Shown: positions 2,831-54,201 of the stretch, one piece after another
How positions within the stretch are numbered: position 1 is the first letter of the stretch
How the letters are laid out: each line of letters opens with the position of its first letter
From: Minisyncoccota bacterium
Lineage (GTDB): Bacteria > Patescibacteriota > Minisyncoccia > Phycocordibacterales > Phycocordibacteraceae
NCBI GenBank assembly: GCA_041660025.1
Contig: JBAZXD010000002.1
Coordinates: 68,635-132,634 of the forward strand
Reading direction: 5' to 3'
Length of the DNA stretch: 64,000 bases
Program-made: the position numbers and the translations under genes
The notes under the pieces: generated by a model
Seen by the model: the letters and a program-made list of their open reading frames with translations, nothing else
Told to the model about the DNA's origin: nothing
Databases searched by the model: none

Positions 2831-3688
2831 ATGGCACTTACCGACGAACAAACGCGCGCGCTCGAGAAGAAGGCGGAATCCATCCGCGAGACGATCATCC
2901 AGATGCTCGTCGCGGCGAAGAGCGGACATACCGCTGGCCCTCTGGGTATGGCGGACATCTTTACCGCATTCTATTTCCACATCCTCAATCACGATCCAAA
3001 GGATCCGGATCGGGCGGATCGAGACCGCCTCATCCTCTCCAATGGCCATATCGTACCGGTCCGGTACGCAGCGATGGCGCATGCGGGCTACTTCCCGGTC
3101 GAAGAATGCCTCACTCTGCGTGCGTTCGACAGTCGGCTCCAGGGGCACCCGGAGCGCCTGCGCCTGCCCGGGCTCGAGACTACCTCCGGCCCCTTGGGCG
3201 AAGGGCTCTCGCAAGCGGCGGGTATGGCGTACTCCTTCCGTATGGACGGCGCGAAACAGCGCGTGTATTGCCTGATGAGCGACGGCGAGCAGGAAGCAGG
3301 GAACACTTGGGAAGCGGCACTGTTCGCAGGCAAGAATAAGCTCCACAACCTCACGGCGGTAATGGACCGGAACAATATTCAGATAGACGGAATGACCGAG
3401 GATGTGATGCCGCTTGAGCCGATCGCAGACAAGTATCGTGCGTTCAACTGGCATGTGCTCGAAGTGAACGGACACGATATCCCCGCGTTCATCAGTGCGG
3501 TCGAAGAAGCGAAAACCATCTACGAGAAGCCAACGCTCATCATCGCGCACACTATTCCCGGCAGGGGCGTCCCCGAGATTGAATTCGACTATCACTGGCA
3601 CGGTAAGCCGCCGACCGCGGAAGAAGCGAAGCACTTTCTAAAAGATATCCGCACGATGGGCGGCAAGGTCCCTCACGAATATGCTTAA
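2831..3688 (+). CDS. tkt: transketolase, N-terminal (TPP-binding) subunit of a split transketolase
   Basis: 'SGHTAGPLGMADIFTAFYFHILNHDP...DRLILSNGH...CLMSDGEQEAGNTWEAALFAGKNKLHNLTAVMDRNNIQIDG' is the transketolase PP domain. Confidence 0.9.
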   Translation: MALTDEQTRALEKKAESIRETIIQMLVAAKSGHTAGPLGMADIFTAFYFHILNHDPKDPDRADRDRLILSNGHIVPVRYAAMAHAGYFPVEECLTLRAFDSRLQGHPERLRLPGLETTSGPLGEGLSQAAGMAYSFRMDGAKQRVYCLMSDGEQEAGNTWEAALFAGKNKLHNLTAVMDRNNIQIDGMTEDVMPLEPIADKYRAFNWHVLEVNGHDIPAFISAVEEAKTIYEKPTLIIAHTIPGRGVPEIEFDYHWHGKPPTAEEAKHFLKDIRTMGGKVPHEYA

Positions 3689-4667
3689 TCAAGACGCAAA
3701 ATTGGCCGAAAACATATTTGCGGACGACGTACCGCAGGCGCCGACGCGCGACGGCTTCGGGAAAGGAACGGTGGAGGCGGGGAAGGCCGATACGCGCGTG
3801 GTGGTGCTCTGCGCCGACCTCGCCGAGAGCACGCGCGCCGAGTGGTTCCAGAAAGAATTTCCCGAGCGCTACGTCGAGATGGGCGTCGCCGAGCAAAATA
3901 TGGCAGCCGTCGCCGCCGGTATGGCAGAGGCGGGGAAGATACCGTTCATCGCAAGCTACGCGGCATTCTCGCCGGGCCGCAATTACGAGCAGATCCGCAC
4001 AAGCATTGCGCTCAACCGACAGCCGGTCAAGGTGTGCGGGATGCACGCCGGCGTCTCCGTCGGCCCTGACGGCGCGACACACCAGATGCTCGAGGATATC
4101 GGGATGATGCGTATGCTCCCGGGGATGACGGTCATCGCTCCTGGAGACAGCGAGGAGGCACGCAAAGCGGTCGTCGCCGCCGCGAAAACGGACGGGCCGG
4201 TGTATCTTCGCTTCGGCCGTGCGGCGACGCCGGTCTTCACGACGAGCGAGACGCCGTTTCAGATAGGGAAGGCGCTCGTGCTCTGGGAATCGGAAAAGCC
4301 GCAAGTCGCGATACTCTCGACCGGTTCTCTAAGCTATGCCGCGCTTGTCGCGGCCCGCGCGCTCGCCGAAAGCGGTATCGAGAGCATCGTACTCCACGTG
4401 CCGACCATAAAGCCACTCGACGAGGCGGCAGTACTCGAGGTGGCGAAGCGCGCGGGCCGCGTCATTACCGTCGAAGAACACCAGGCCGCCGGCGGCTTCG
4501 GGAGCGCCGTGGTGGAATTCCTTTCCGAGCACCACCCGGTGCCCGTGCGACGGCTCGGCGTGCAGGACCAGTTCGGCCAGTCGGGTACTCCCGAAGAACT
4601 TTTAAAACACTACGAGCTCGACGCTCTCCACATCACAGAGGCTGCCCATGCGTGCATTCATATATGA
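3681..4667 (+). CDS. tkt: transketolase, C-terminal (Pyr + C-terminal domain) subunit
   Basis: 'TRDGFGKGTVEAGKADTRVVVLCADLAESTRAEWFQKEFPERYVEMGVAEQNMAAVAAGMA' is present, and the ORF overlaps the N-terminal subunit gene by 8 nt. Confidence 0.9.
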   Translation: MLNQDAKLAENIFADDVPQAPTRDGFGKGTVEAGKADTRVVVLCADLAESTRAEWFQKEFPERYVEMGVAEQNMAAVAAGMAEAGKIPFIASYAAFSPGRNYEQIRTSIALNRQPVKVCGMHAGVSVGPDGATHQMLEDIGMMRMLPGMTVIAPGDSEEARKAVVAAAKTDGPVYLRFGRAATPVFTTSETPFQIGKALVLWESEKPQVAILSTGSLSYAALVAARALAESGIESIVLHVPTIKPLDEAAVLEVAKRAGRVITVEEHQAAGGFGSAVVEFLSEHHPVPVRRLGVQDQFGQSGTPEELLKHYELDALHITEAAHACIHI

Positions 4668-4842
4668 TGGGGGTATGAAAAATACGATAAACTCCTATTT
4701 TGCAGTGCTCATCATCACCATCGCAGGCGCGAGCGCCGCTTGGCTCATCGTACATATGGCAAATTCCGTTTCCCTCATCACCACCTTCAGCGGCTCAGAA
4801 GCGACCTACGCGCAGCTTCAGCAGTCCATACTGAAACCGTAA
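4648..4842 (+). CDS. small predicted membrane protein (hypothetical)
   Basis: 64-aa ORF with one hydrophobic helix 'YFAVLIITIAGASAAWLIVHM'. No recognisable family; the start may be the internal Met at about 4675. Confidence 0.3.
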   Translation: MRAFIYDGGMKNTINSYFAVLIITIAGASAAWLIVHMANSVSLITTFSGSEATYAQLQQSILKP

Positions 4843-4855
4843 CGGTTCTTCTTAG

Positions 4856-5839
4856 TTAGAGCGTACGAACGGCGTACGAAGAGGGTGCGTCGTCGAGATA
4901 TTGTTCCAGTGCATTACGCGTGAGCAGGCTTTTCTGCGCGCCGACTTCCTGCACGACCGACATAGCATTTACCGGCCCCCAGAGAAGCGCTTCAGCAAGC
5001 GACTTTCCGAGTGCAAGTGCGGCGACGAACGTTGAAGTTGTCGCGTCGCCCGCGCCCGTGCGGTCGATCGGCGGCGAAGCATCCGGATACATCGGTACCT
5101 TGAGCGTTTCTGTGCCGTCGGAGGCGTATGCGCCGTTTCGTCCGTCGGTAATGAGCACGATCTTCGGGCCGAGCGCGCGCATCTTTTCCAGCAATGTTCG
5201 TATATCCGTCTCGCCGAGCTCCAAGATGCGCTGTGCCTCCTCTTTATTTACGGCGACGACCTCTGTCGCGGCGTAGAGCGCAGCGAGCTTCTCTTTGCCC
5301 ATCTGTATCTGGAACGTGCCGGGCTGGAAGGCAAGCTTCGTCTCGGGATGCTCGTTAAGCCACGCGACCAGCTCGCTGTGGAGCGCTTCGGCACCCTCGC
5401 CGGTCGAGGAGAGATAGAGCCACTTCGGTGCTTTAAAGCCGCTCGGAATGAGGTACGGATATGCTTCGTGCCGGATGAGGATGGTGCGCTCGGCTTCGTA
5501 CCAGAGTACGTAATGATGATTTGTCGGAATGCCGTCGTTCACGGCAACATACGTCGTATCGATACCTTCTCGGGAGAAAGTCGCAAGGATCTCTTCTCCA
5601 TACCGGTCCTTCCCGACGTTTGAGATGAATCCAGAGGAGAGGCCGAGGCGCGCGGCGGCGACTGCGGCGTTCGCCGCATTGCCTACACCCGGCACGAGGA
5701 TGGAGGCATCGTAGGGTATCTTATCGCCCCACCGCATCGAGATGGTGCAATTCTGGTTGTTGATGTCGCAGGTGACGCGCGCGTCCTTAAGCTTGATGAA
5801 CTCGTCAACAGTAGTGTCGCCGATAGCCACAAAATCCAT
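4856..5839 (-). CDS. PfkB-family carbohydrate/ribo-kinase
   Basis: Ribokinase-like motifs 'VPGVGNAANAAVAAARLG' and C-terminal 'DRTGAGDATTSTFVAALALG' (the GAGD anion-hole/ATP motif). Confidence 0.8.
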   Translation of the reverse strand: MDFVAIGDTTVDEFIKLKDARVTCDINNQNCTISMRWGDKIPYDASILVPGVGNAANAAVAAARLGLSSGFISNVGKDRYGEEILATFSREGIDTTYVAVNDGIPTNHHYVLWYEAERTILIRHEAYPYLIPSGFKAPKWLYLSSTGEGAEALHSELVAWLNEHPETKLAFQPGTFQIQMGKEKLAALYAATEVVAVNKEEAQRILELGETDIRTLLEKMRALGPKIVLITDGRNGAYASDGTETLKVPMYPDASPPIDRTGAGDATTSTFVAALALGKSLAEALLWGPVNAMSVVQEVGAQKSLLTRNALEQYLDDAPSSYAVRTL

Positions 5840-11759: not shown

Positions 11760-12170
11760 ATGGGGAATCTCATCTTCCTTCTCATCACGCTCGCGCTCCT
11801 CGGCGGCTTCGTTGCGCTCACCGAGTACGAGGCGCGGCGCGGCGCGCGCGTATTCGCGCGCGAACGCGCACACCTCGACCGCAACGTCGAGCGCATTGAG
11901 TTTGTCCTCCGACACATTGATCTCGCTGCATTCCTACGGGACGAAGTGCGGCGCCTCGCCGGACGTGTCGGCCACGACATCGCGCATCTCTCGCTCCAAA
12001 CCGTGCGGAACGCTGAACGACTGCTCACGCGCCTCGTCCGGCACCTGCGTTCCCGGCACGAGGTCGAGAGCGCGCCGCGCGAGAGCACCCGGGCGTTCGT
12101 GAAGACACTCTCCGATTTCAAGGGTCGCCTGAAGGCGACGCATCCGGAGATTTCTGATATACAACACTAG
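11760..12170 (+). CDS. hypothetical protein with an N-terminal transmembrane anchor
   Basis: 136-aa ORF with N-terminal 'LIFLLITLALLGGFVAL' followed by an Arg-rich helical region. No family recognised. Confidence 0.45.
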   Translation: MGNLIFLLITLALLGGFVALTEYEARRGARVFARERAHLDRNVERIEFVLRHIDLAAFLRDEVRRLAGRVGHDIAHLSLQTVRNAERLLTRLVRHLRSRHEVESAPRESTRAFVKTLSDFKGRLKATHPEISDIQH

Positions 12171-12175
12171 GAGAG

Positions 12176-12249
12176 GCCGCCTTAGCTCAGTTGGCTAGAG
12201 CGCCACTTTTGTAAAGTGGATGTCCTCGGTTCGAATCCGAGAGGCGGCT
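12176..12249 (+). tRNA. tRNA-Thr (anticodon UGU)
   Basis: Cloverleaf read by eye: acceptor GCCGCCT/AGGCGGC, D-arm GCTCAGTTGGCTAGAGC, anticodon stem CCACT/AGTGG with loop TTTGTAA (anticodon TGT), T-arm CTCGG-TTCGAAT-CCGAG, discriminator T. CCA is not encoded. Confidence 0.85.
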
Positions 12250-12926
12250 CAAAGGTTAGTAGTCGTTTGAGAGGTCGTTGAGACCAGCGCGCCCTTGGGG
12301 AACTGTTTCTCGAGGTCCTCGAGCGTGGTGAAGCCGTAATACTGCTTGCCGTTGATGACGAATGCGGGGAAAGTGCTCTTCACCTTCGTAACGGCGATGA
12401 ACGTTTTCAGGGCGCCGAGGTCGAGATTGTAGTCGAACGAATACACGCGCAAGGTCGGATACGTGTCGCGCAGGTAGGAGAGCGCGTAGCCTGCCTTGTC
12501 GCAGTCGGCGCAATCGCCGGCATTGCTATAGAAATAGAGAACCGTCACCGGCTTCGTACCGCAGGCCTCCGCGAGCTTCTTTGTGATGAGATAGTCGCGT
12601 ATCTCGAGCAGGGAGTATTGCTCCTTCAGCCGTATCACTTGCGCCGTGTCGCTCCCGAGCTGATTCTCGGCGTAGGCAAGGCGATTGCCCATATCTGCGA
12701 GTTCGCCGGTCAGCGCGATAGAAGAGGCGGCGCTGTCGCAGGGCGCCGCCTCGAGCAGGGAGAACTGTGTGTCGAGCGACAGGATGTCGATGGAGAGCTG
12801 GTCCTCGATGGTCGAGAGTTCGTTGATGCGTACGCGGTTCAGGTAGCTGATGGCGTACGCGACCGTGCCCGCAAGCAGGACGGTGATACCGAGAGCTATG
12901 AGCGCGTTCCGGGCAACGAGTGACAT
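12249..12926 (-). CDS. membrane-anchored thioredoxin-fold protein (CxxC 'CADC')
   Basis: N-terminal TM helix 'ALIALGITVLLAGTVAYAI', a coiled linker, and a C-terminal domain 'VTVLYFYSNAGDCADCDKAGYALSYL...FPAFVINGKQYYG' typical of thioredoxin/DsbA-like folds. Its 3' end abuts the tRNA 3' end. Confidence 0.6.
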   Translation of the reverse strand: MSLVARNALIALGITVLLAGTVAYAISYLNRVRINELSTIEDQLSIDILSLDTQFSLLEAAPCDSAASSIALTGELADMGNRLAYAENQLGSDTAQVIRLKEQYSLLEIRDYLITKKLAEACGTKPVTVLYFYSNAGDCADCDKAGYALSYLRDTYPTLRVYSFDYNLDLGALKTFIAVTKVKSTFPAFVINGKQYYGFTTLEDLEKQFPKGALVSTTSQTTTNL

Positions 12927-14199: not shown

Positions 14200-15351
14200 C
14201 TAACGAATCGTCGCGCCGAAGTTCTTAACGGTGGCGGCTTCGAGCTTGGAGTGGAGGGCATTCACCTCGTCATTCGTAAGTGTCTTGTCGATGCTTCGGT
14301 AGGTGATTCGGTACGCGTAGCTGACCCTGCCGGCACCCAATTTTTCCTCATTCTCATACGTATCCACGAGCGTCATCTGTTCGGCCATATCACCGACCAC
14401 ATCGCGTACGAGGTCGAAATAATTGTTCGGGACGAAATCCTTGCCGACGACAAAGGAGATATCGCGCACGACCGGCGGATATTTACTGACCTCGACGAAC
14501 GCGTGTCCCAATCGGAGTTGTTTCTTTACGCGTTCATCCTCGCTCCAGAAAAGGCGGATATCGGGAACCTCGGTGCCGATTATCGCGAGCCGTTCGAGCC
14601 CGAAGCCGAATGCCCAGCCGTGGTATCCGACAACGCCCATCTTTTTGAGTACGCTCGCCTTCGGCATACCTCCACCGAGTATTTCGATCCACTCGCTCCC
14701 CGCTGCTTGTGCCGCCGCGCCCGAGACCCCGACCTCCACCTCAAGCGATGGGTCGGTGTACGGGAAGGTGTCGGGATTGAAACGGAATTTCGTATCTTCG
14801 CCGAAGACGCTTTTCACCACCTGCGAGAGCGCGCTCTTAAGGTCCTCGATATCGAGCGGCTCTGACTCTGGAGTAAGGAACCAGCCGCCCATCTGATGGA
14901 AGATGTTCATATGGCGACGGTCGATCTCATCCTTACGATAGACCTTGCCGTAGCAGAGCGCGCCCATCGATTCTCCGCGCAGGATACGCTCCTTGATCTC
15001 GGGCTGGTTGAGGTAGTAGTACCAAAAGACAGTGTCGTGCGTGCGCAGGATATTCTCGGTATCCACGTAGTACGTGTCTGAAGAAGAGCGCGCGGGGTGG
15101 TCGGCAGGGAAGTCGAAGAGGTCGAAGCTGATGCTTGCGGGCACGATTTCCGGTATCTCGATATCATCGAAGTCTTTGAAGACAGGGAGCGCTTTCACGC
15201 GCTCAACAATCTCACGGAGCGGGCTTCCGGGCGTGCGGGAGAGGTCCGGCATCGCCAGATACCGCTTCATACGCTCCGCGTCCACGTCGGTCCGTTGCTC
15301 CAGTTCGGCTCGGAGCAGCTCCTCCTCGGCCCTCGATATTCTGATATCCAT
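14200..15351 (-). CDS. pheS: phenylalanine--tRNA ligase, single-chain mitochondrial-like form (PheS catalytic core fused to a C-terminal FDX-ACB anticodon-binding domain)
   Basis: Class II motifs 'FPYTDPSLEVEV' and 'GWAFGFGLERLAIIG' are PheS alpha-subunit hallmarks. The C-terminal ~90 aa 'RDISFVVGKDFVPNNYFDLVRDVVGDMAEQMTLVDTYENEEKLGAGRVSYAYRITYRSIDKTLTNDEVNALHSKLEAATVKNFGATIR' matches the FDX-ACB domain of PheT C-termini and mitochondrial FARS2. The typical bacterial PheS N-terminal coiled coil is absent. Confidence 0.85.
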   Translation of the reverse strand: MDIRISRAEEELLRAELEQRTDVDAERMKRYLAMPDLSRTPGSPLREIVERVKALPVFKDFDDIEIPEIVPASISFDLFDFPADHPARSSSDTYYVDTENILRTHDTVFWYYYLNQPEIKERILRGESMGALCYGKVYRKDEIDRRHMNIFHQMGGWFLTPESEPLDIEDLKSALSQVVKSVFGEDTKFRFNPDTFPYTDPSLEVEVGVSGAAAQAAGSEWIEILGGGMPKASVLKKMGVVGYHGWAFGFGLERLAIIGTEVPDIRLFWSEDERVKKQLRLGHAFVEVSKYPPVVRDISFVVGKDFVPNNYFDLVRDVVGDMAEQMTLVDTYENEEKLGAGRVSYAYRITYRSIDKTLTNDEVNALHSKLEAATVKNFGATIR

Positions 15352-20271: not shown

Positions 20272-21720
20272 GTGATAAAAACAAAAACAGCACTTACGTA
20301 TTATGGTCGACCGATTCTTATCGGTCTCTTTACCGTGCTATTTACGGTCGCTATCGGCATGTCAATCGCGTTTGCAACAGGCTTCACTACGCCGGCAAAA
20401 GTCTTGGCTCAGGTACTGCCGCCTTGTTGCGTCATACCTCCGCCCCCTCCGCCTGCCCCAGTACTTCCTCCGTGTTGTGTCATTCCGCCACCTCCTCCGC
20501 CACCCCTGCCGCCACCTCCGCCGCCACCCCTGCCTCCTCCTCCGCTTCTCGCACCGACTCCCATAACGCCGGCTCCGACGCCGACGCCTGCTCCCACGCT
20601 CGTTCCGGAACCAACTCCCACACCGACCCCTGAACTCCCTCCCGCGCCTACTCCAACTCCCACACCAACGCCAACGCCAACGCCAACCCCCGAACCCCCG
20701 TCTCCGCCGCCTCCAACTCCCGAACCTCCTCTACCTCCTCCTCCCGAACCCCCACTCCCACCTCCTTCTGGCGGTGGTGGTAGTAGCGGTGGCGGCGGAG
20801 GGGGTGGCGGCGGCGGAGGCTCGCCCTCGCCGACCATCACGCTCGCAGTGCTCCCGCACGTGCTTTCTCAGCCGCTCGCGTATCTCTATCTCTCACAGAT
20901 CCCGTATACCGGCCTCGACCTCGGACCGATCGGCACCGTGCTCTATTGGCTTGCGCTTATCGGTTGGTCGCTTGCGCTCGCCTACCTCATCCTCTTCGGC
21001 GCCGCGCCGCTGGCGAACCGCCGCGTGCGCGACTTCGCATCTCGCATCAAGACCGCGCTCAACGCGCGTGAACTCCTGCCCGAGGAGAGGCAGGCGGTTC
21101 CTGCTGTCGCGCACACGGATGAGAAACCGCGTACGGAGCATACATTCCCCGAACCGTCGCGCGGGCACTCTTCGTATGAAGGATTCAAGTCGTATGCACA
21201 CGGCGGCGCTCTCTCGATCGAGGATATCGTGAAGGCTCTTTCGCGGGAGCGCCACGAAACGGCCACCGAATACGGCTCGCAATCGCGTCCGGCAGTCGAG
21301 CCGGTGTATGAAAATGTCGAGCCGATCTACGAACACACTGAGCCGGTGTATGAAAATGTCGAGCCAATCGCCGCTGCCGAGGTAAGAGTAGTGCCGCCGC
21401 ACATCCGCGGCTTCATCAGCGCGCTTGTTGAGGGCGACCGCACGGCGGTCTTTGCCGGATTGCGCCAGCACGTGCGCGGTGCCGGTGCGCCGGAACAACT
21501 CATCTCGTCCGCGATTTGTCTCCTCGATGATGCCTACCGTGCGCGTGTTGACGGAACCCTCTGCGACGAAAATATCGCGCGGCTGACCGCGCGCCTCAAC
21601 ACGCCGACTCTGGAGAAGCTTATCGCTTCGCTCGCCACAGCGGTCGATTCAAGCTATTCAGAAGGAGTCATCGGCGCGAAACTCGCGCTTACCCGCGCTC
21701 TCGCCGTCATCGGCGCTTAG
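20272..21720 (+). CDS. proline-rich low-complexity membrane protein with an internal sortase-like sorting signal and a cytoplasmic tandem-repeat tail (hypothetical)
   Basis: GTG start, N-terminal TM helix, duplicated 'VLPPCCVIPPPPPP', (PT)n and poly-Gly tracts. Then 'IPYTG' + hydrophobic helix 'LDLGPIGTVLYWLALIGWSLALAYLILFG' + 'NRRVRDFASR'. Then about 230 aa with tandem 'EPVYENVEPIYEHTEPVYENVEPI'. Confidence 0.6.
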   Translation: MIKTKTALTYYGRPILIGLFTVLFTVAIGMSIAFATGFTTPAKVLAQVLPPCCVIPPPPPPAPVLPPCCVIPPPPPPPLPPPPPPPLPPPPLLAPTPITPAPTPTPAPTLVPEPTPTPTPELPPAPTPTPTPTPTPTPTPEPPSPPPPTPEPPLPPPPEPPLPPPSGGGGSSGGGGGGGGGGGSPSPTITLAVLPHVLSQPLAYLYLSQIPYTGLDLGPIGTVLYWLALIGWSLALAYLILFGAAPLANRRVRDFASRIKTALNARELLPEERQAVPAVAHTDEKPRTEHTFPEPSRGHSSYEGFKSYAHGGALSIEDIVKALSRERHETATEYGSQSRPAVEPVYENVEPIYEHTEPVYENVEPIAAAEVRVVPPHIRGFISALVEGDRTAVFAGLRQHVRGAGAPEQLISSAICLLDDAYRARVDGTLCDENIARLTARLNTPTLEKLIASLATAVDSSYSEGVIGAKLALTRALAVIGA

Positions 21721-22950
21721 TTACTTCCGCGAGCGGATCTCTTCGCTCGCTTTCGGTATGAAATCCGAGAGGGAAGCTATATCCAGTTTCCCCTGGTCGC
21801 GACTGTCGACTGAAATGGTTTTCGCCTCTACTTCCTTATCGCCGACGATGAGCAGATAGGGGATTTTTTCCGTCTTTGCATTTCGTATTTTCTTACCGAG
21901 CGATTCGTTCGCCTCATCCGCATCTGCGCGGATATTTGTCGCTTTCAATGCATTCAAAACTTCTTTTGCGTACGCAGTGTGCTTCTCAGAGACCGGGAGC
22001 ACGCGCGCCTGCACCGGACTAAGCCAGAGCGGAAGTATGCCAGCCGTGTGCTCAAGCAGAACAGCCGTGAAGCGCTCAATGGAGCCCATAATGGCGGAGT
22101 GGATCATCACAATGCGCTCGTGCTCGCCTTTCTCATTGACGCAGGAGAGGTCAAAGCGCTCGGGGAGGTTCATGTCGAGCTGAATAGTCGCTACCTGATG
22201 CTGACGGCCAAGAGAATCGCTTGCGATGAAGTCGAGTTTGGGTCCGTAGAGCGCGGCCTCGCCCGGTGCTTCAAAAGAATCGGCACCGCGCTCGCGCGCT
22301 ATCTCTCGCAAAGAATCTTCCGCGCTTTTCCAGATCTCCGGCGTGCCGAGATATTTCTCAGGCGCTTTCGGGTCGTGGAACGAGAGCCGCACTTTGAGGT
22401 CGGTGAATCCGAATTGTGTATAAAAGGTATCGATGATATCCCAAATCTTAAGGAATTCTTCTTTGATTTGCGTTGTGCGGCAAAAAACGTGGCTGTCGTC
22501 CTGCGTGATAGAGAGTACACGCGTGAGTCCGTTCAGTTCTCCCGATTGTTCGTCGCGATACACCATCGTCGTCTCGGCATACCGTTGAGGCATCTCGCGA
22601 TAAGAGTGCGGCCGGCGGGCGAAGATTTGCGTGTGATGCGGACAATTCATCGGTTTGATAGCGTACTCGCGCTCGTCGCGCGAGGTCATTTTGAAGAGGT
22701 CTTCGGCAAATTTTTCCCAATGGCCGGAAGTCTCGTACAGACTGCGCTTCGTGATGTGCGGGATGGTGACTCGCTGATAGTCGTATTTCGAGCGGAGCTC
22801 CCAGACGAACTGGTCCAACTCCTGGCGAACAACTGTGCCCTTTGGCGTCCAGAGCGGGAGGCCGGAGCCTACGAGCTCAGAGAAGGTAAACAAATCGAGC
22901 TCTTTGCCGAGCTTCTTGTGGTCGCGCTCTTTACCAGCTTCTGTATCCAT
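21721..22950 (-). CDS. thrS: threonine--tRNA ligase, catalytic + anticodon-binding domains only (no N-terminal TGS/editing domains)
   Basis: Class II core 'YAIKPMNCPHHTQIF...RVLSITQDDSHVFC' with the Zn ligands and a C-terminal anticodon domain. Start set at internal Met 'MDTEAGKERDHKKLGKELDLF'; the upstream 35 codons in the ORF track look like read-in. Confidence 0.85.
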   Translation of the reverse strand: MDTEAGKERDHKKLGKELDLFTFSELVGSGLPLWTPKGTVVRQELDQFVWELRSKYDYQRVTIPHITKRSLYETSGHWEKFAEDLFKMTSRDEREYAIKPMNCPHHTQIFARRPHSYREMPQRYAETTMVYRDEQSGELNGLTRVLSITQDDSHVFCRTTQIKEEFLKIWDIIDTFYTQFGFTDLKVRLSFHDPKAPEKYLGTPEIWKSAEDSLREIARERGADSFEAPGEAALYGPKLDFIASDSLGRQHQVATIQLDMNLPERFDLSCVNEKGEHERIVMIHSAIMGSIERFTAVLLEHTAGILPLWLSPVQARVLPVSEKHTAYAKEVLNALKATNIRADADEANESLGKKIRNAKTEKIPYLLIVGDKEVEAKTISVDSRDQGKLDIASLSDFIPKASEEIRSRK

Positions 22951-22976
22951 ATAGAGAAGAGAATAGCATACCGAAA

Positions 22977-25900
22977 TCAGAGCGGCTTCAGCTCCTCGAT
23001 AGCGAGCGAAGGCTCGCCGTTCCTGACCGAGACCTTGCCCTTCACCAGGAGGCACGTACCGGGTGCGATAAGAGTCGCGTGTTCCTTTAAGAGCTTCGGG
23101 AAGATAACCGCCTCTATCGAGTCGGTCGTGTCCTCAACGGTGATGAACGCCATCTTCTCTCCGCTCTTGGTAAGGATGTTACGCACGATGGTAACGAGGA
23201 CCGGCAGGATGAGCAGCATTCCCGGTTGCGGCTCCTCCTTCACTTTCTTGATGGAGAGGTGAGCTTTCTTGGTGATAGCCTCGTGCGCGTCGAGCGGATG
23301 ACCGCTCACATAGATACCGAGCAGTTCTTTTTCCCACGCAAGCTTGTCGAGGAGAGACGTCGCTTTTCCTTCGGGAAGGATAAGGGAAGGAGCGGCGAAC
23401 GCGCCGAAGAGGGAATCTTGCGGTGCCGCCGCCGTCGCTTCACGGTGGAATGCAAGCATGGTTTCAATATTTTCGAGCATCGAGCCGCGCTTGTGCTCCG
23501 ACGTGTTGAGAGAATCTAGCGCGCCGCACTTAATCAATGATTCCAGTGATTTTCGGTTCAGATTCTTCGAACCGACGCGCGAGAGGAAGTCGGATAGCGT
23601 CTTGAAGGGACCGTGCGTTTTTCGTTCGGCGATGATGGCTTCCGAAATTCCGTCGCCGAAATTTTTTATTGAAGAAAGTCCAAATCGAATTGCTTCGCCG
23701 TTTGAAACTACCGTAAATACCGTTCCGCTCTCGTTCACATCTGGCGGGAGCACGGGGATTCCCATGCGCTTCGCCTCGGCGACGAAGATGGAGATCTGCT
23801 CAGTGTCGCCCGAGTCGGCGGTGAGGACTGCCGCGAGATATTCCACCGGATAATTCGCTTTCATATAGGCGGTCTGATAGGCGACCTTTCCGTAAGATGC
23901 GGCGTGCGCCTTATTGAAGCCGTAGGCGGCGAACGGCTCTATCAGCTCCCACAGTTTTTCGGAGAGCTGTTTGGAGAGTTTGCCGTATTCCATAAAACCT
24001 TTCATCAATTTCTGCTTCTCCGCCTGCATGACCTTCGGGATTTTCTTGCCCATCGCTTTGCGGAGCGCGTCCGCTTCGAGCCACGAATAACCGCCGAGCT
24101 TGATGGCGGTGAGAAGCACATCGTCCTGATAGACGAGAATGCCGTAGGAGAAATCAAGATACTCTTTCATCCGCGGGTCGAGATAATGGATGAGCTTCGG
24201 GTTATGTTTGCGTTCAATGTAGCTGGGAATCGTTTCCATCGGCCCCGGGCGGTACAGGGCGACCATTGCGTTGATGTCGTGGATGGTGGACGGCTTCAGC
24301 TCTTTGAGCCAGCGAGTCATGCCGGAGCCATTCAGCTGAAACGTTCCTTCGGTTTCGCCGCGCGCGAGCATCTGATAGGTCTTTGCGTCGTCGATCGGTA
24401 CGTTCTCGATATCGACCGCAATTGAGCGCGATTCCTTCACTCGCGCGACCGCATCAGCGAGAATGGCGAGGTTCTTGATACCGAGAAAATCGAATTTCAG
24501 GAGCCCGACGCCGCCGTACTCGTCGGTGATGGAATACATATCGTACTGCGTGATGATCTTTCCGGTGCCTTTCGGGTCGGGCTGAATAGGAGTCCATTCA
24601 ATGAGCGGGGTCGGTGCGACCACGACGCCCGCTGCGTGGACGCCGACGTGTCGCACACATCCCTCGATGCGTTTCGCGAGGTCGAGGATTTCCCGGGACT
24701 CATCGTCCTCATCGTAGAGCGCTTTCAGGTCCGGTTCCAGCTCGAGCGCATGGTCAATGGTCATCGGGAATCCCTGGGAGCCCATCGGGATAAGTTTCGC
24801 GATTCGGTCTCCGGTGGTGTAGGAGTGTCCGAGCGCTCGCGCGACGTCGCGCACCGCCGCGCGCGCCATCATCGTGCCGAAGGTGCCGATCTGTGCCACG
24901 TGGTCCTCCCCATATTTTTTCTTCGTATACGCGATCATCTCGTCGCGTCGATTATCGGCGATGTCCATATCAATATCCGGCGCTTTCGGGCGCTCCGGGT
25001 TAAGGAACCGTTCGAACGGCAGTTTATAGAAAAGCGGGTTCACGTTCGTGATGCCGATGAGATATGCGACGAGACTTCCGGCTGCGCTTCCGCGCGTGGT
25101 GGTGAGGATGCCAGCTCCTCGTGCGAAGGCGAGCAGGTCGGCGACGATGAGGTAGTACACGGCGAAGCCTTTGCCGATGATGATGTTCAATTCGTATTCG
25201 ATGCGGTCGGTGACCTCTTTCGTTTCTTCGAGCTTTCGCGTGGCAATACCGGCATAGGCCTTTGCACGCAGTTCTTCATCGTGATTTTTGAAGCCGGGTG
25301 AGACGGGAACTGCGGGGAAGGTCCATTTCCCGAGGTCGAAGGAGAGGGAACAGCGGTCGGCGATCTTCCGTGAGTTGTCTACCGCCTCGGGGATATCGTT
25401 GAAGAACGAGAGTGCGCGCTTCTCGCCGATGAACGAGAAATCCTCGTCCTCGTTCTTTCCGTGCGCGCCGTGCTGGATGCGGCGCATGATCTCGGTCGCC
25501 TCGCGGTCGTCGGGCGCGAGGTAATAGACGTCGTTCTGGGCGACAAGCGGCGTTGCGCTCGCGCGAGCGAGTGCGACGATTTTTTTCATCAATGCTTCGT
25601 GCCCCTCGACTTTCGGATGGTGCGTAATCTCGAGGAATACATTTTCAGTACCAAAGATGCCCTTGAATTCCGAAAGCGCGGCCGCCGCGCCGTTCTCGTC
25701 GCCCGCGCGCAGGAGCTGGGCGACGTCGCCGGCAAAAGAGGGAATGAGCGCGATGAGACCGCGAGCATGTTCGCGTAGCAACTCTTTATCCATACGCGGC
25801 CGCTCATAGAACCCTTCCGTCCACGACTTCGTCACAAGCGCGAGAAGATTGGTGTAGCCCTCATTATTTTCCGCTAAGAGGACGATGCGCGAGCGCTTCG

Positions 25901-26153
25901 CGTCGATGTTCTGGTCTCGGTCGTGGCGCGAGCGCGGGGCGAGATAGGCGTCGACGCCGAGAATCGGCTTGATGCCCGCACTGGTCGCCGCCTTATAGAA
26001 CTCGATTGCGCCGTGCATATTGCCGGCGTCAGTGAGTGCGAGCGCATCCATCCCCTCCTTTTTCGCTTTCTCCACAAGCTCGTCCACCTTCGGGAGCGCC
26101 TGGAGAAACGAATAGTGGCTGTGCGTATGCAGGTGGATGAAGCGACTTACCAT
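22977..26153 (-). CDS. dnaE: DNA polymerase III alpha subunit (DnaE), compact form of about 1059 aa
   Basis: PHP N-terminus 'MVSRFIHLHTHSHYSFLQALPKVDELVEKAKKEGMDALALTDAGNMHGAIEFYKA' and the Pol III alpha core follow. The ORF track extends to 26864 only because the antisense of rnhB carries no stops; start set at ATG 26153. Confidence 0.9.
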   Translation of the reverse strand: MVSRFIHLHTHSHYSFLQALPKVDELVEKAKKEGMDALALTDAGNMHGAIEFYKAATSAGIKPILGVDAYLAPRSRHDRDQNIDAKRSRIVLLAENNEGYTNLLALVTKSWTEGFYERPRMDKELLREHARGLIALIPSFAGDVAQLLRAGDENGAAAALSEFKGIFGTENVFLEITHHPKVEGHEALMKKIVALARASATPLVAQNDVYYLAPDDREATEIMRRIQHGAHGKNEDEDFSFIGEKRALSFFNDIPEAVDNSRKIADRCSLSFDLGKWTFPAVPVSPGFKNHDEELRAKAYAGIATRKLEETKEVTDRIEYELNIIIGKGFAVYYLIVADLLAFARGAGILTTTRGSAAGSLVAYLIGITNVNPLFYKLPFERFLNPERPKAPDIDMDIADNRRDEMIAYTKKKYGEDHVAQIGTFGTMMARAAVRDVARALGHSYTTGDRIAKLIPMGSQGFPMTIDHALELEPDLKALYDEDDESREILDLAKRIEGCVRHVGVHAAGVVVAPTPLIEWTPIQPDPKGTGKIITQYDMYSITDEYGGVGLLKFDFLGIKNLAILADAVARVKESRSIAVDIENVPIDDAKTYQMLARGETEGTFQLNGSGMTRWLKELKPSTIHDINAMVALYRPGPMETIPSYIERKHNPKLIHYLDPRMKEYLDFSYGILVYQDDVLLTAIKLGGYSWLEADALRKAMGKKIPKVMQAEKQKLMKGFMEYGKLSKQLSEKLWELIEPFAAYGFNKAHAASYGKVAYQTAYMKANYPVEYLAAVLTADSGDTEQISIFVAEAKRMGIPVLPPDVNESGTVFTVVSNGEAIRFGLSSIKNFGDGISEAIIAERKTHGPFKTLSDFLSRVGSKNLNRKSLESLIKCGALDSLNTSEHKRGSMLENIETMLAFHREATAAAPQDSLFGAFAAPSLILPEGKATSLLDKLAWEKELLGIYVSGHPLDAHEAITKKAHLSIKKVKEEPQPGMLLILPVLVTIVRNILTKSGEKMAFITVEDTTDSIEAVIFPKLLKEHATLIAPGTCLLVKGKVSVRNGEPSLAIEELKPL

Positions 26154-27623: not shown

Positions 27624-27652
27624 AAAACGGCCGCGCTTGCGCGGCCGTTTTG
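27624..27652 (+). terminator. rho-independent terminator after rpmF
   Basis: AAAACGGCCGCGC-TT-GCGCGGCCGTTTT, a 13-bp perfect stem, then GTTTGC. Confidence 0.65.
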
Positions 27653-27681
27653 TTTGCTATACTACTCGCACAGATCTTTCC

Positions 27682-28605
27682 ATGGCGAACCGACATTTAG
27701 CGCGCTCAGTTGTTCTCCAGACGCTCTTCGAGTGGGACACCACCCGCGCGAGCGAGAAGGACACGTTTGCCATCCTCGCCCGTAACGTCGCGGAATTTGG
27801 CGGCGATGATGTTGATCAGCCGTTCATGGACAGCCTCCTCAAGGGTGTGCTCGCAAAGAAGGATGATATCGACCTTGTCATCGGCAAGGCGGCGCCTGAG
27901 TGGCCCCTAGAGCGTATCGCCCCAGTCGACCGCAATATCCTCCGGCTCGGGCTCTACGAGCTCCTCTTTGCTGACCGCACGCAGGTGCCGGCGAAGGTCG
28001 CTATTAATGAAGCTATCGAGCTCGCCAAGACCTTCGGCGGGGATTCATCCGGCCGGTTCGTCAACGGTGTCTTGGGCGCGGTCTATAAGGAGCTCGGCGA
28101 GCCGGGCAAGGATGAGCAGGGAGCGAAGAAGGTGAAGCGCGAGGAACTCCCGCTCGAGAAGATGGGCGGCGCTATCGTCTACGCCAAGCACGATGGGCAG
28201 TATTATCTCGCGCTTGTGCACGACGTGTTCGGCCGCTGGACGCTCTCAAAGGGGCACATTGAGGAGGACGCCACGCCCGAGGCGGGCGTGGCGCGCGTCA
28301 TTAAGGAAGAGCTCGGGCTCACTGCCGTAGTGGAGAATCGCGTTGGCGAGAACGAGTACATCGCTTCGCATCCGGAGAAGGGGAAGGTTAGGAAGCACGT
28401 CTGGTTCTTCCTCGCTTCGAGCCAGTTCGAGCCCTTGATACTGAAGAAGAGCGGCGGGCTCGACGACGCGAAATGGTTCCGCCTCCAGGACATCATTGAC
28501 CTCAACTTCTACGATGATATGCTCCCCATCGTTACGGTGGCCGTTCAAAAGCTCCTCGATAAGGCGGGGAGTGAGAGAAGCCGCAGTGCACCAGCACATG
28601 CCTGA
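27682..28605 (+). CDS. nusB: NusB antitermination-factor domain fused to a C-terminal NUDIX hydrolase domain
   Basis: N-terminal 'MANRHLARSVVLQTLFEWD...APEWPLERIAPVDRNILRLGLYELLFADRTQVPAKVAINEAIELAKTFGGDSSGRFVNGVLG' is NusB. The C-terminal 'GGAIVYAKHDGQYYLALVHDVFGRWTLSKGHIEEDATPEAGVARVIKEELGL' carries the Nudix box GX5EX7REUXEEXGU. Confidence 0.8.
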   Translation: MANRHLARSVVLQTLFEWDTTRASEKDTFAILARNVAEFGGDDVDQPFMDSLLKGVLAKKDDIDLVIGKAAPEWPLERIAPVDRNILRLGLYELLFADRTQVPAKVAINEAIELAKTFGGDSSGRFVNGVLGAVYKELGEPGKDEQGAKKVKREELPLEKMGGAIVYAKHDGQYYLALVHDVFGRWTLSKGHIEEDATPEAGVARVIKEELGLTAVVENRVGENEYIASHPEKGKVRKHVWFFLASSQFEPLILKKSGGLDDAKWFRLQDIIDLNFYDDMLPIVTVAVQKLLDKAGSERSRSAPAHA

Positions 28606-53680: not shown

Positions 53681-54046
53681 TTAGTATCCGCCGCGACCGT
53701 ATCCGCCGCCGTTGCCGCCGCCGAATCCGCCGCGATCACCGCCGCCGAAACCGCCTTCGCGACGCGGAGGGCGATCGCCCTGCGGGCGAGCGAAGGAGAC
53801 CGAGAGCGTGCGCCCGTCGAGCTCCTTACCGTCCCATCGGTCAATAGCCGCCTGAGCTTCCGCCTCGGTGGCCATCTCGACGAAGCCGAAACCGCGCGAG
53901 CGGCCCGTCATACGGTCGGAGATAATGCTCGCGGACACGACATTGCCGGCCTCACCGAAGGCCTTCTTAAGATCGTCTTCCGTCGAGCGATAGGGGATAC
54001 CGCCCACATAGAGCTTGTTCCCCTGTACTGCTGATTGCTGATCCAT
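53681..54046 (-). CDS. glycine-rich RNA-binding protein (single RRM)
   Basis: RNP2 'KLYVGGIPY', RNP1 'RSRGFGFVEM', then an RGG/GGY tail 'GGFGGGDRGGFGGGNGGGYGRGGY'. Start at Met 'MDQQSAVQGNKLYVGG'. Confidence 0.82.
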   Translation of the reverse strand: MDQQSAVQGNKLYVGGIPYRSTEDDLKKAFGEAGNVVSASIISDRMTGRSRGFGFVEMATEAEAQAAIDRWDGKELDGRTLSVSFARPQGDRPPRREGGFGGGDRGGFGGGNGGGYGRGGY

Positions 54047-54201
54047 GAAATACAGATAACTGGTTAATCTCGCCGAAACTGAACACTTGCGGCCGTGAAG
54101 CCGAGCGAAGCTCGAATACTCTGCGAGTGGGAAAAGTATGCCAGAAATGTCAACAAAGCGCAACCCTATATAACAAGGGTGTGGATAAGGTCTTGAGTGC
54201 G

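Follow-up and report, generated by a model that had tools for sequence, protein, structure and literature searches.

The stretch of DNA analyzed here, a window of 64,000 nucleotides (64 kb) on contig JBAZXD010000002.1 of a Minisyncoccota bacterium, carries on its minus strand a thrS gene at 21721..22950 (stop codon 21721-21723, ATG 22948-22950) whose product is a 409-residue threonyl-tRNA synthetase (ThrRS) made up only of a catalytic core and an anticodon-binding domain, i.e. a natural 'deltaN' form of the enzyme. Read from a GTG farther upstream, the open reading frame (ORF) of this gene spans 21721..23055 and encodes 444 aa; the likeliest start is the ATG at 22950, which yields the 409 aa that a first-pass annotation of the window had proposed. 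The Pfam scan placed the class II catalytic core (tRNA-synt_2b, PF00587) at residues 86-301 of 409 (22048..22695, minus strand; E 7.5e-44, profile positions 1-178 of 179) and the HGTP anticodon-binding domain (HGTP_anticodon, PF03129) at residues 314-401 (21748..22011, minus strand; E 1.3e-21, profile positions 1-91 of 94), and neither TGS nor tRNA_SAD (PF07973) was found in the protein even at E<=1. The earlier description of the domain content, a core plus anticodon-binding domain with neither N1/TGS nor the N2 editing domain, was thus borne out by hidden Markov model scanning. The protein also passed the NCBIfam thrS equivalog model TIGR00418 (516.4 bits vs. a cutoff of 383.65), matching only profile positions 166-563 of 565 and leaving positions 1-165 unmatched, and solved ThrRS cores align with it end to end and unambiguously, the best being residues 236-643 of the S. 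aureus enzyme (1NYQ, E 1.5e-117). All three zinc ligands lie within the catalytic core, namely Cys103 (PMNCPHH), His154 (DDSHVF) and His284 (VMIHSA), which we take to be the counterparts of E. coli Cys334, His385 and His511; across 121 relatives, the cysteine and the first histidine are invariant (121/121) and the second histidine is kept in 120/121. Preceded by an acidic leader of eight residues (MDTEAGKE), this core enzyme presumably charges tRNA-Thr with threonine, the presumed substrate being the canonical tRNA-Thr(UGU) of the plus-strand gene at 12176..12250, which shows G1-C72, C2-G71, G35 and U36 and does not encode the CCA end.

Directly upstream on the same strand lies dnaE (DNA polymerase III alpha; 22977..26153, minus strand, 1058 aa from MVSRFIHLHTHS), with its TGA at 22977-22979, so that 26 nt (22951..22976, minus strand) separate the two genes. 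The 35 in-frame codons ahead of the thrS ATG, correctly described before as unlike N1/N2, overlap the 3' end of dnaE; the position of the dnaE stop together with this overlap leaves no coding space for N-terminal domains of ThrRS. On the other side, the thrS stop codon abuts that of a convergent plus-strand ORF with a spacer of 0 nt (20272-21720, 482 aa), which contains long low-complexity runs of Pro, Thr and Gly (PPPPPP, PTPTPT, GGGGSSGGGG), is predicted to have membrane segments and gave no Pfam match; at a related locus (L082), gyrB sits where the window has this ORF.

These features bear on the concern that an N-terminal extension of ThrRS may be hidden by a frameshift, a mis-assembly or a mis-called start. 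Artefacts of this kind do happen, as exemplified by the frameshifted N2/core junction at another related locus (L001), but in the window the dnaE stop stands on the same strand only 26 nt upstream and no N2 similarity is present in any frame. A sequencing frameshift, raised by the first-pass annotation, was looked for and not found, and an upstream continuation of thrS is ruled out by the dnaE stop and the codon overlap. The 409-residue sequence is identical to the NCBI record MFA5998270.1, 'threonine--tRNA ligase [Candidatus Paceibacterota bacterium]' (137,109-bp contig), and is also found in JGI, both sources calling the same start; a 444-aa version was absent from the sequence collection searched. 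Among the 120 best matches, all with at least 71% identity and drawn from NCBI, JGI, ENA and Logan assemblies, 98 are 402-440 aa in length, the outcome of the length comparison with relatives that had been suggested. Where named, these homologues belong to Kaiserbacteria, Parcubacteria or Patescibacteria; the counts of short forms are of 90%-identity clusters from Kaiserbacteria-like Parcubacteria. Most of the 98 start 3-14 residues ahead of an RDH(K/R)K motif, and a leader of the pattern MDxxxxKE is frequent among the short forms. An N-terminal boundary common to ~100 such clusters, seen in independent assemblies from all four sources, weighs against an artefact in any one of them, and we regard this explanation as so improbable that it can be set aside. 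These data confirmed that the 409-aa ThrRS lacking an editing domain is real, bacterial and conserved.

The remaining close homologues are 578-614 aa long (about 580), carry tRNA_SAD and are 71-78% identical to the window ThrRS over the core. They begin at the HxxxH motif of N2 and have no TGS domain, as is seen in long forms of 578-593 aa, so the first-pass annotation can be refined in that Parcubacteria at large had already lost TGS. Their editing motifs are intact (CxGxH in 21/21 of the in-group long forms, HxxxH in 19/21 within the N-terminal window scanned), implying that the ancestor could edit. A scan of a genome collection with a long-form query gave a best 80 loci that are all full-length, yielding synteny only for long-form genomes. 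In the relatives' loci, dnaE lies directly upstream of thrS (L001-L004, L006-L008, L012, L017, L019, L029, L082 and L083), and ORFs of 579-629 aa comprising N2 plus core follow dnaE directly in L002, L003, L006-L008, L012, L017, L019 and L029. In L082, a short-form relative, dnaE is followed by a spacer of 28 nt, a 408-aa thrS, gyrB and then a gene resembling that of phenylalanyl-tRNA synthetase (PheRS). Given the conserved dnaE neighbor, the thrS of the window is the syntenic ortholog of the N2-bearing gene, and the ~540 nt that encode N2 at this site in relatives appear to have been cleanly removed in place in the window lineage, with no remnant in the 26-nt spacer. A full-length ThrRS at the syntenic position had been named beforehand as an observation that would speak against a genuine loss. 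Such N2-bearing genes do occur after dnaE in relatives, yet the finding is not overturned by them, since a short form found throughout a lineage in ~100 clusters, with a dnaE-thrS spacer of 26-28 nt, points to a derived deletion and not to a frameshift.

The phylogenetic position of the long forms is less straightforward. In a midpoint-rooted neighbor-joining (NJ) tree they form one clade, and in outgroup-rooted NJ trees (121 ThrRS cores plus 7 outgroups) this clade is monophyletic in 58/60 bootstraps. The boundary and leader pattern common to the deep short clades argue for one ancient deletion of N2, and several losses, or one regain, within the Parcubacteria group would also be compatible with the NJ trees. 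Beyond this group, a representative-level search returned other ThrRSs of ~405-440 aa that fall into about ten 50%-identity clusters, 39-46% identical to the window ThrRS; among these clusters, one is shared with a 577-aa Aureabacteria protein, one is labelled Gammaproteobacteria and one is on a 475-kb contig. Short forms may therefore occur sporadically in other, unrelated metagenomic lineages, some of them possibly owing to mis-called starts, and the literature may understate how widely N-terminally minimal ThrRS is distributed.

These sporadic clusters, including the one labelled Gammaproteobacteria, lend some credence to the notion that the short protein is an auxiliary paralog, e.g. an antibiotic-resistant or stress-specific ThrRS, with a full-length housekeeping enzyme encoded elsewhere. 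Duplicates of the ThrRS gene are described for other bacteria (PMC4787780), and our view of this genome is confined to the 64-kb window. Against the paralog stand three features of the gene itself: it sits in the ancestral dnaE-thrS(-gyrB-pheS) position, occupied in relatives by the N2-bearing gene; it shares 71-78% identity with those N2-bearing orthologs; and its score exceeds the cutoff of the thrS equivalog model. In addition, genomes of the candidate phyla radiation (CPR) are small and a duplicated synthetase would be unusual there. We consider an auxiliary role very improbable.

The window ThrRS has close parallels among enzymes already studied. The E. coli deltaN-ThrRS, a laboratory truncation comprising residues 242-642 (1EVK/1EVL/1FYF/1KOG), has the same boundaries and domain content, with residue 9 of the window ThrRS aligning with residue 1 of the 1EVK construct over its full length (E 4e-94) and the zinc ligands conserved between the two. 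The E. coli construct is an engineered fragment, whereas the window ThrRS is a natural gene product, conserved across a bacterial lineage and provided with the MDTEAGKE leader. Dock-Bregeon and coworkers are said to have found in 2000 that this deltaN enzyme mischarges serine, and that activation of serine is about a thousand times weaker than that of threonine. Unless some other factor intervenes, discrimination of that order would limit the error to about 1 in 1000 per Thr codon. The N2 editing domain is carried by bacterial, eukaryotic cytoplasmic and most mitochondrial ThrRSs, and a bacterial ThrRS from which N2 has been removed is a dimer with full activation activity but charges tRNA less efficiently (PMC4267643).

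The first-pass annotation had likened the short ThrRS to mitochondrial forms and to archaea that edit in trans, and both comparisons are apt. Like the window ThrRS, the yeast mitochondrial MST1 (3UGQ and others) is a natural minimalist enzyme of core and anticodon-binding domain without N2; it misactivates serine and has pre-transfer editing only, Ser-tRNA-Thr accumulates in vitro, and mischarging is not prevented by pre-transfer editing alone (PMC4267643). By analogy, MST1 would be the best functional model for the window ThrRS, which may perhaps likewise hydrolyze Ser-AMP before transfer. There are differences as well: the window ThrRS has no organellar context, the tRNA-Thr of the window lacks the unusual 8-nt anticodon loop, and the window ThrRS is closer to the full-length bacterial enzyme of S. 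aureus (1NYQ) than to MST1 (E 7.8e-81). With N2-bearing Parcubacteria orthologs as its nearest kin and MST1 ranking below bacterial enzymes among PDB matches, the loss of N2 in this lineage is independent of that in MST1. The window ThrRS would thus be an independent bacterial parallel to MST1.

In the crenarchaeal system of ThrRS-cat and ThrRS-ed (Sulfolobus, Aeropyrum; 3A31), the catalytic polypeptide likewise lacks a built-in editing domain, but there an archaeal-type enzyme is paired with a free-standing editing protein, whereas no partner was found for the window ThrRS in the 64-kb window or at 75 related N2 loci. The window ThrRS failed the archaeal-type model NF003068 (235.6 bits vs. 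a cutoff of 484), and Aeropyrum ThrRS-1 (3A31) is its weakest PDB match (E 1.5e-51). Failing that model, and with no partner among the sequences searched, it was not taken for an archaeal split system.

Editing in trans could nevertheless be provided by a free-standing Ser-tRNA-Thr deacylase elsewhere in the genome, be it AlaX-like, similar to archaeal ThrRS-ED/DTD or of a new family. There is archaeal precedent for such an arrangement, with ThrRS-cat and ThrRS-ed in Sulfolobus and other Crenarchaeota (PMC4267643), the part of the genome inspected amounts to 64 kb, and ~20 of the ORFs scanned in it had no Pfam match. The search for a free-standing editing gene that had been proposed came out negative as far as it reached: no tRNA_SAD, YbaK, DTD or B3/B4 match was found among the ~50 window ORFs scanned, and no free-standing N2 was found in the closest relatives that carry N2. 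No N2 remnant came up in the window when the N2 domains of four close relatives served as tblastn queries; the best match (11784-11969, E 0.44) falls within an ORF of 136 aa that matches nothing in Pfam, and it was discarded. Among the 80 best loci retrieved from one metagenome collection with an N2 query, the core followed N2 directly in 75/75 of those with enough downstream sequence. A protein-database search with a 171-aa N2 query, its results confined to proteins of <300 aa, returned N2-only entries that were rejected as contig-edge fragments or frameshift products, many of them running into core sequence; the ends of these short proteins are scattered over the N2/core region, with no pile-up at the domain boundary. 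The only apparent split, the thrS of L001 (N2 as P0226, 185 aa; core of 406 aa; the two overlapping at 3290-3345), is due to a 1-nt frameshift beside an A6 run and is a probable assembly error in contig_13311, not a true split gene. A further consideration is that a neighboring PheRS-like gene (see below) also has no editing module, which argues for general loss of editing rather than its relocation. On balance, we deem it unlikely that the editing activity has moved to another protein.

A different form of compensation would be a more selective synthetic site. Comparison of short and long forms revealed consistent core differences at only 2 of 409 positions, D84/E and L234/M, both of them conservative; L234 lies one residue ahead of the Tyr in the conserved motif YGPK. 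In the short forms, the synthetic site of ThrRS thus appears not to have been remodelled.

Taken together, we think it probable that the window encodes the housekeeping ThrRS of an ultra-small, uncultivated member of Candidatus Paceibacterota (Kaiserbacteria-like Parcubacteria, CPR/Patescibacteria), that this enzyme has no post-transfer editing in cis, and that low-level Thr-to-Ser mistranslation is tolerated. In the scenario that we favor, the N1/TGS domain would have been lost first, already in the ancestors, and N2 would then have been deleted in place, with a new start codon arising inside the N2-core linker helix. Like yeast MST1 and the E. coli deltaN construct, the resulting short ThrRS would form a dimer and charge tRNA-Thr; its zinc site would still reject valine, and serine would still be misactivated at a low rate. 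With N2 gone, post-transfer hydrolysis of Ser-tRNA-Thr in cis should be absent, and serine misattached to tRNA-Thr is probably no longer cleared by this enzyme. What fidelity is left would come from kinetic discrimination in the synthetic site, perhaps along with pre-transfer hydrolysis of Ser-AMP as in MST1, and the ensuing mistranslation would be tolerated as in other reduced genomes. Loss of editing is described as common in Mycoplasma and other host-restricted bacteria (PMC10057733, citing Li 2011 and Melnikov 2018), and a tolerance of errors in the window lineage fits those reports by analogy. The shared theme is that reduced genomes lose proofreading by point mutation or by loss of a whole domain; that review names the Mycoplasma enzymes LeuRS and PheRS, along with unspecified aminoacyl-tRNA synthetases of Helicobacter, Borrelia and Rickettsia, as opposed to ThrRS here.

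Several points weigh against this interpretation. In 50/60 of the outgroup-rooted NJ bootstraps the long clade is nested inside the short forms, which at face value implies several losses of N2, or one loss and one regain, and conflicts with the deletion boundary that the short forms share. The functional claims for this CPR ThrRS are drawn from its sequence, and subtle changes that tighten discrimination against serine would escape a comparison of two classes, short vs. long. Finally, the metagenome test for a free-standing N2 extended to the best loci of a single collection, and we have seen 64 kb of the genome, so that a trans-editing factor or a second full-length thrS could lie elsewhere.

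If our interpretation holds, a whole bacterial lineage has dropped N2 while sister lineages keep an intact N2 at the same locus. The core-only and N2-plus-core enzymes, being 71-78% identical, form a natural matched pair with which the in vivo worth of ThrRS proofreading could be measured. The association of reduced genomes with lost proofreading would extend from intracellular parasites and organelles to environmentally abundant CPR bacteria, and a 409-aa ThrRS should not be flagged as truncated by domain-based rules of completeness or annotation. Our literature search found no paper linking CPR/Patescibacteria with deletion of the ThrRS N2 domain or with loss of ThrRS/PheRS editing.

The PheRS-like gene mentioned above lies on the minus strand at 14200..15351, ~6 kb from thrS, and encodes a protein of 383 aa (tRNA-synt_2d plus FDX-ACB) with a monomeric architecture lacking the B3/B4 editing domain of the PheRS beta subunit; together with thrS, it makes two synthetase-like genes without editing in the window. 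The solved structures most similar to the protein are those of human mitochondrial PheRS (E about 1e-53), and its scores fall below the cutoffs of NF051887, 'PheS-related mystery ligase SrmL' (219 bits vs. 300), TIGR00469 pheS_mito (215.6 vs. 258) and TIGR00468 pheS (157 vs. 237). NCBI annotates it as hypothetical (MFA5998263.1). It is present in at least 120 clusters of Kaiserbacteria/Parcubacteria at 69% identity or more, and the gene is also found at L001 7875-9005, beside an N2-bearing thrS, and at L082 14632-15762. The protein may be the equivalent in bacteria of the editing-less mitochondrial PheRS, or even be related to it. If it is the housekeeping PheRS, the lineage would have lost two cis editing modules, that of PheRS first. 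Extending this thought, we tentatively entertain the idea, which we hold to be possible rather than likely, that the Kaiserbacteria-like lineage, free-living or epibiotic, translates with a mitochondria-like minimalist ThrRS and a PheRS-like enzyme and with no replacement editing factor, or else that it relies on a trans-editing factor not yet described or on a synthetic site of unusual selectivity. Were there no replacement factor, its proteome should be measurably 'statistical' at Thr, and possibly Phe, codons.

Three other genes in the window deserve brief mention. Near the window start, the 131-aa product of a plus-strand ORF at 154-549 belongs to the 23S rRNA intervening-sequence protein family (PF05635) and also gave a weaker, bAvd-like match. 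A 160-aa ORF on the minus strand at 53681-54163 carries a eukaryote-style RRM_1 RNA-recognition motif (E 4e-22). At 27637-28605 on the plus strand, a 322-aa protein is a fusion of a NusB domain with a NUDIX hydrolase domain, and this fusion is conserved in L082 at 4001-4918.

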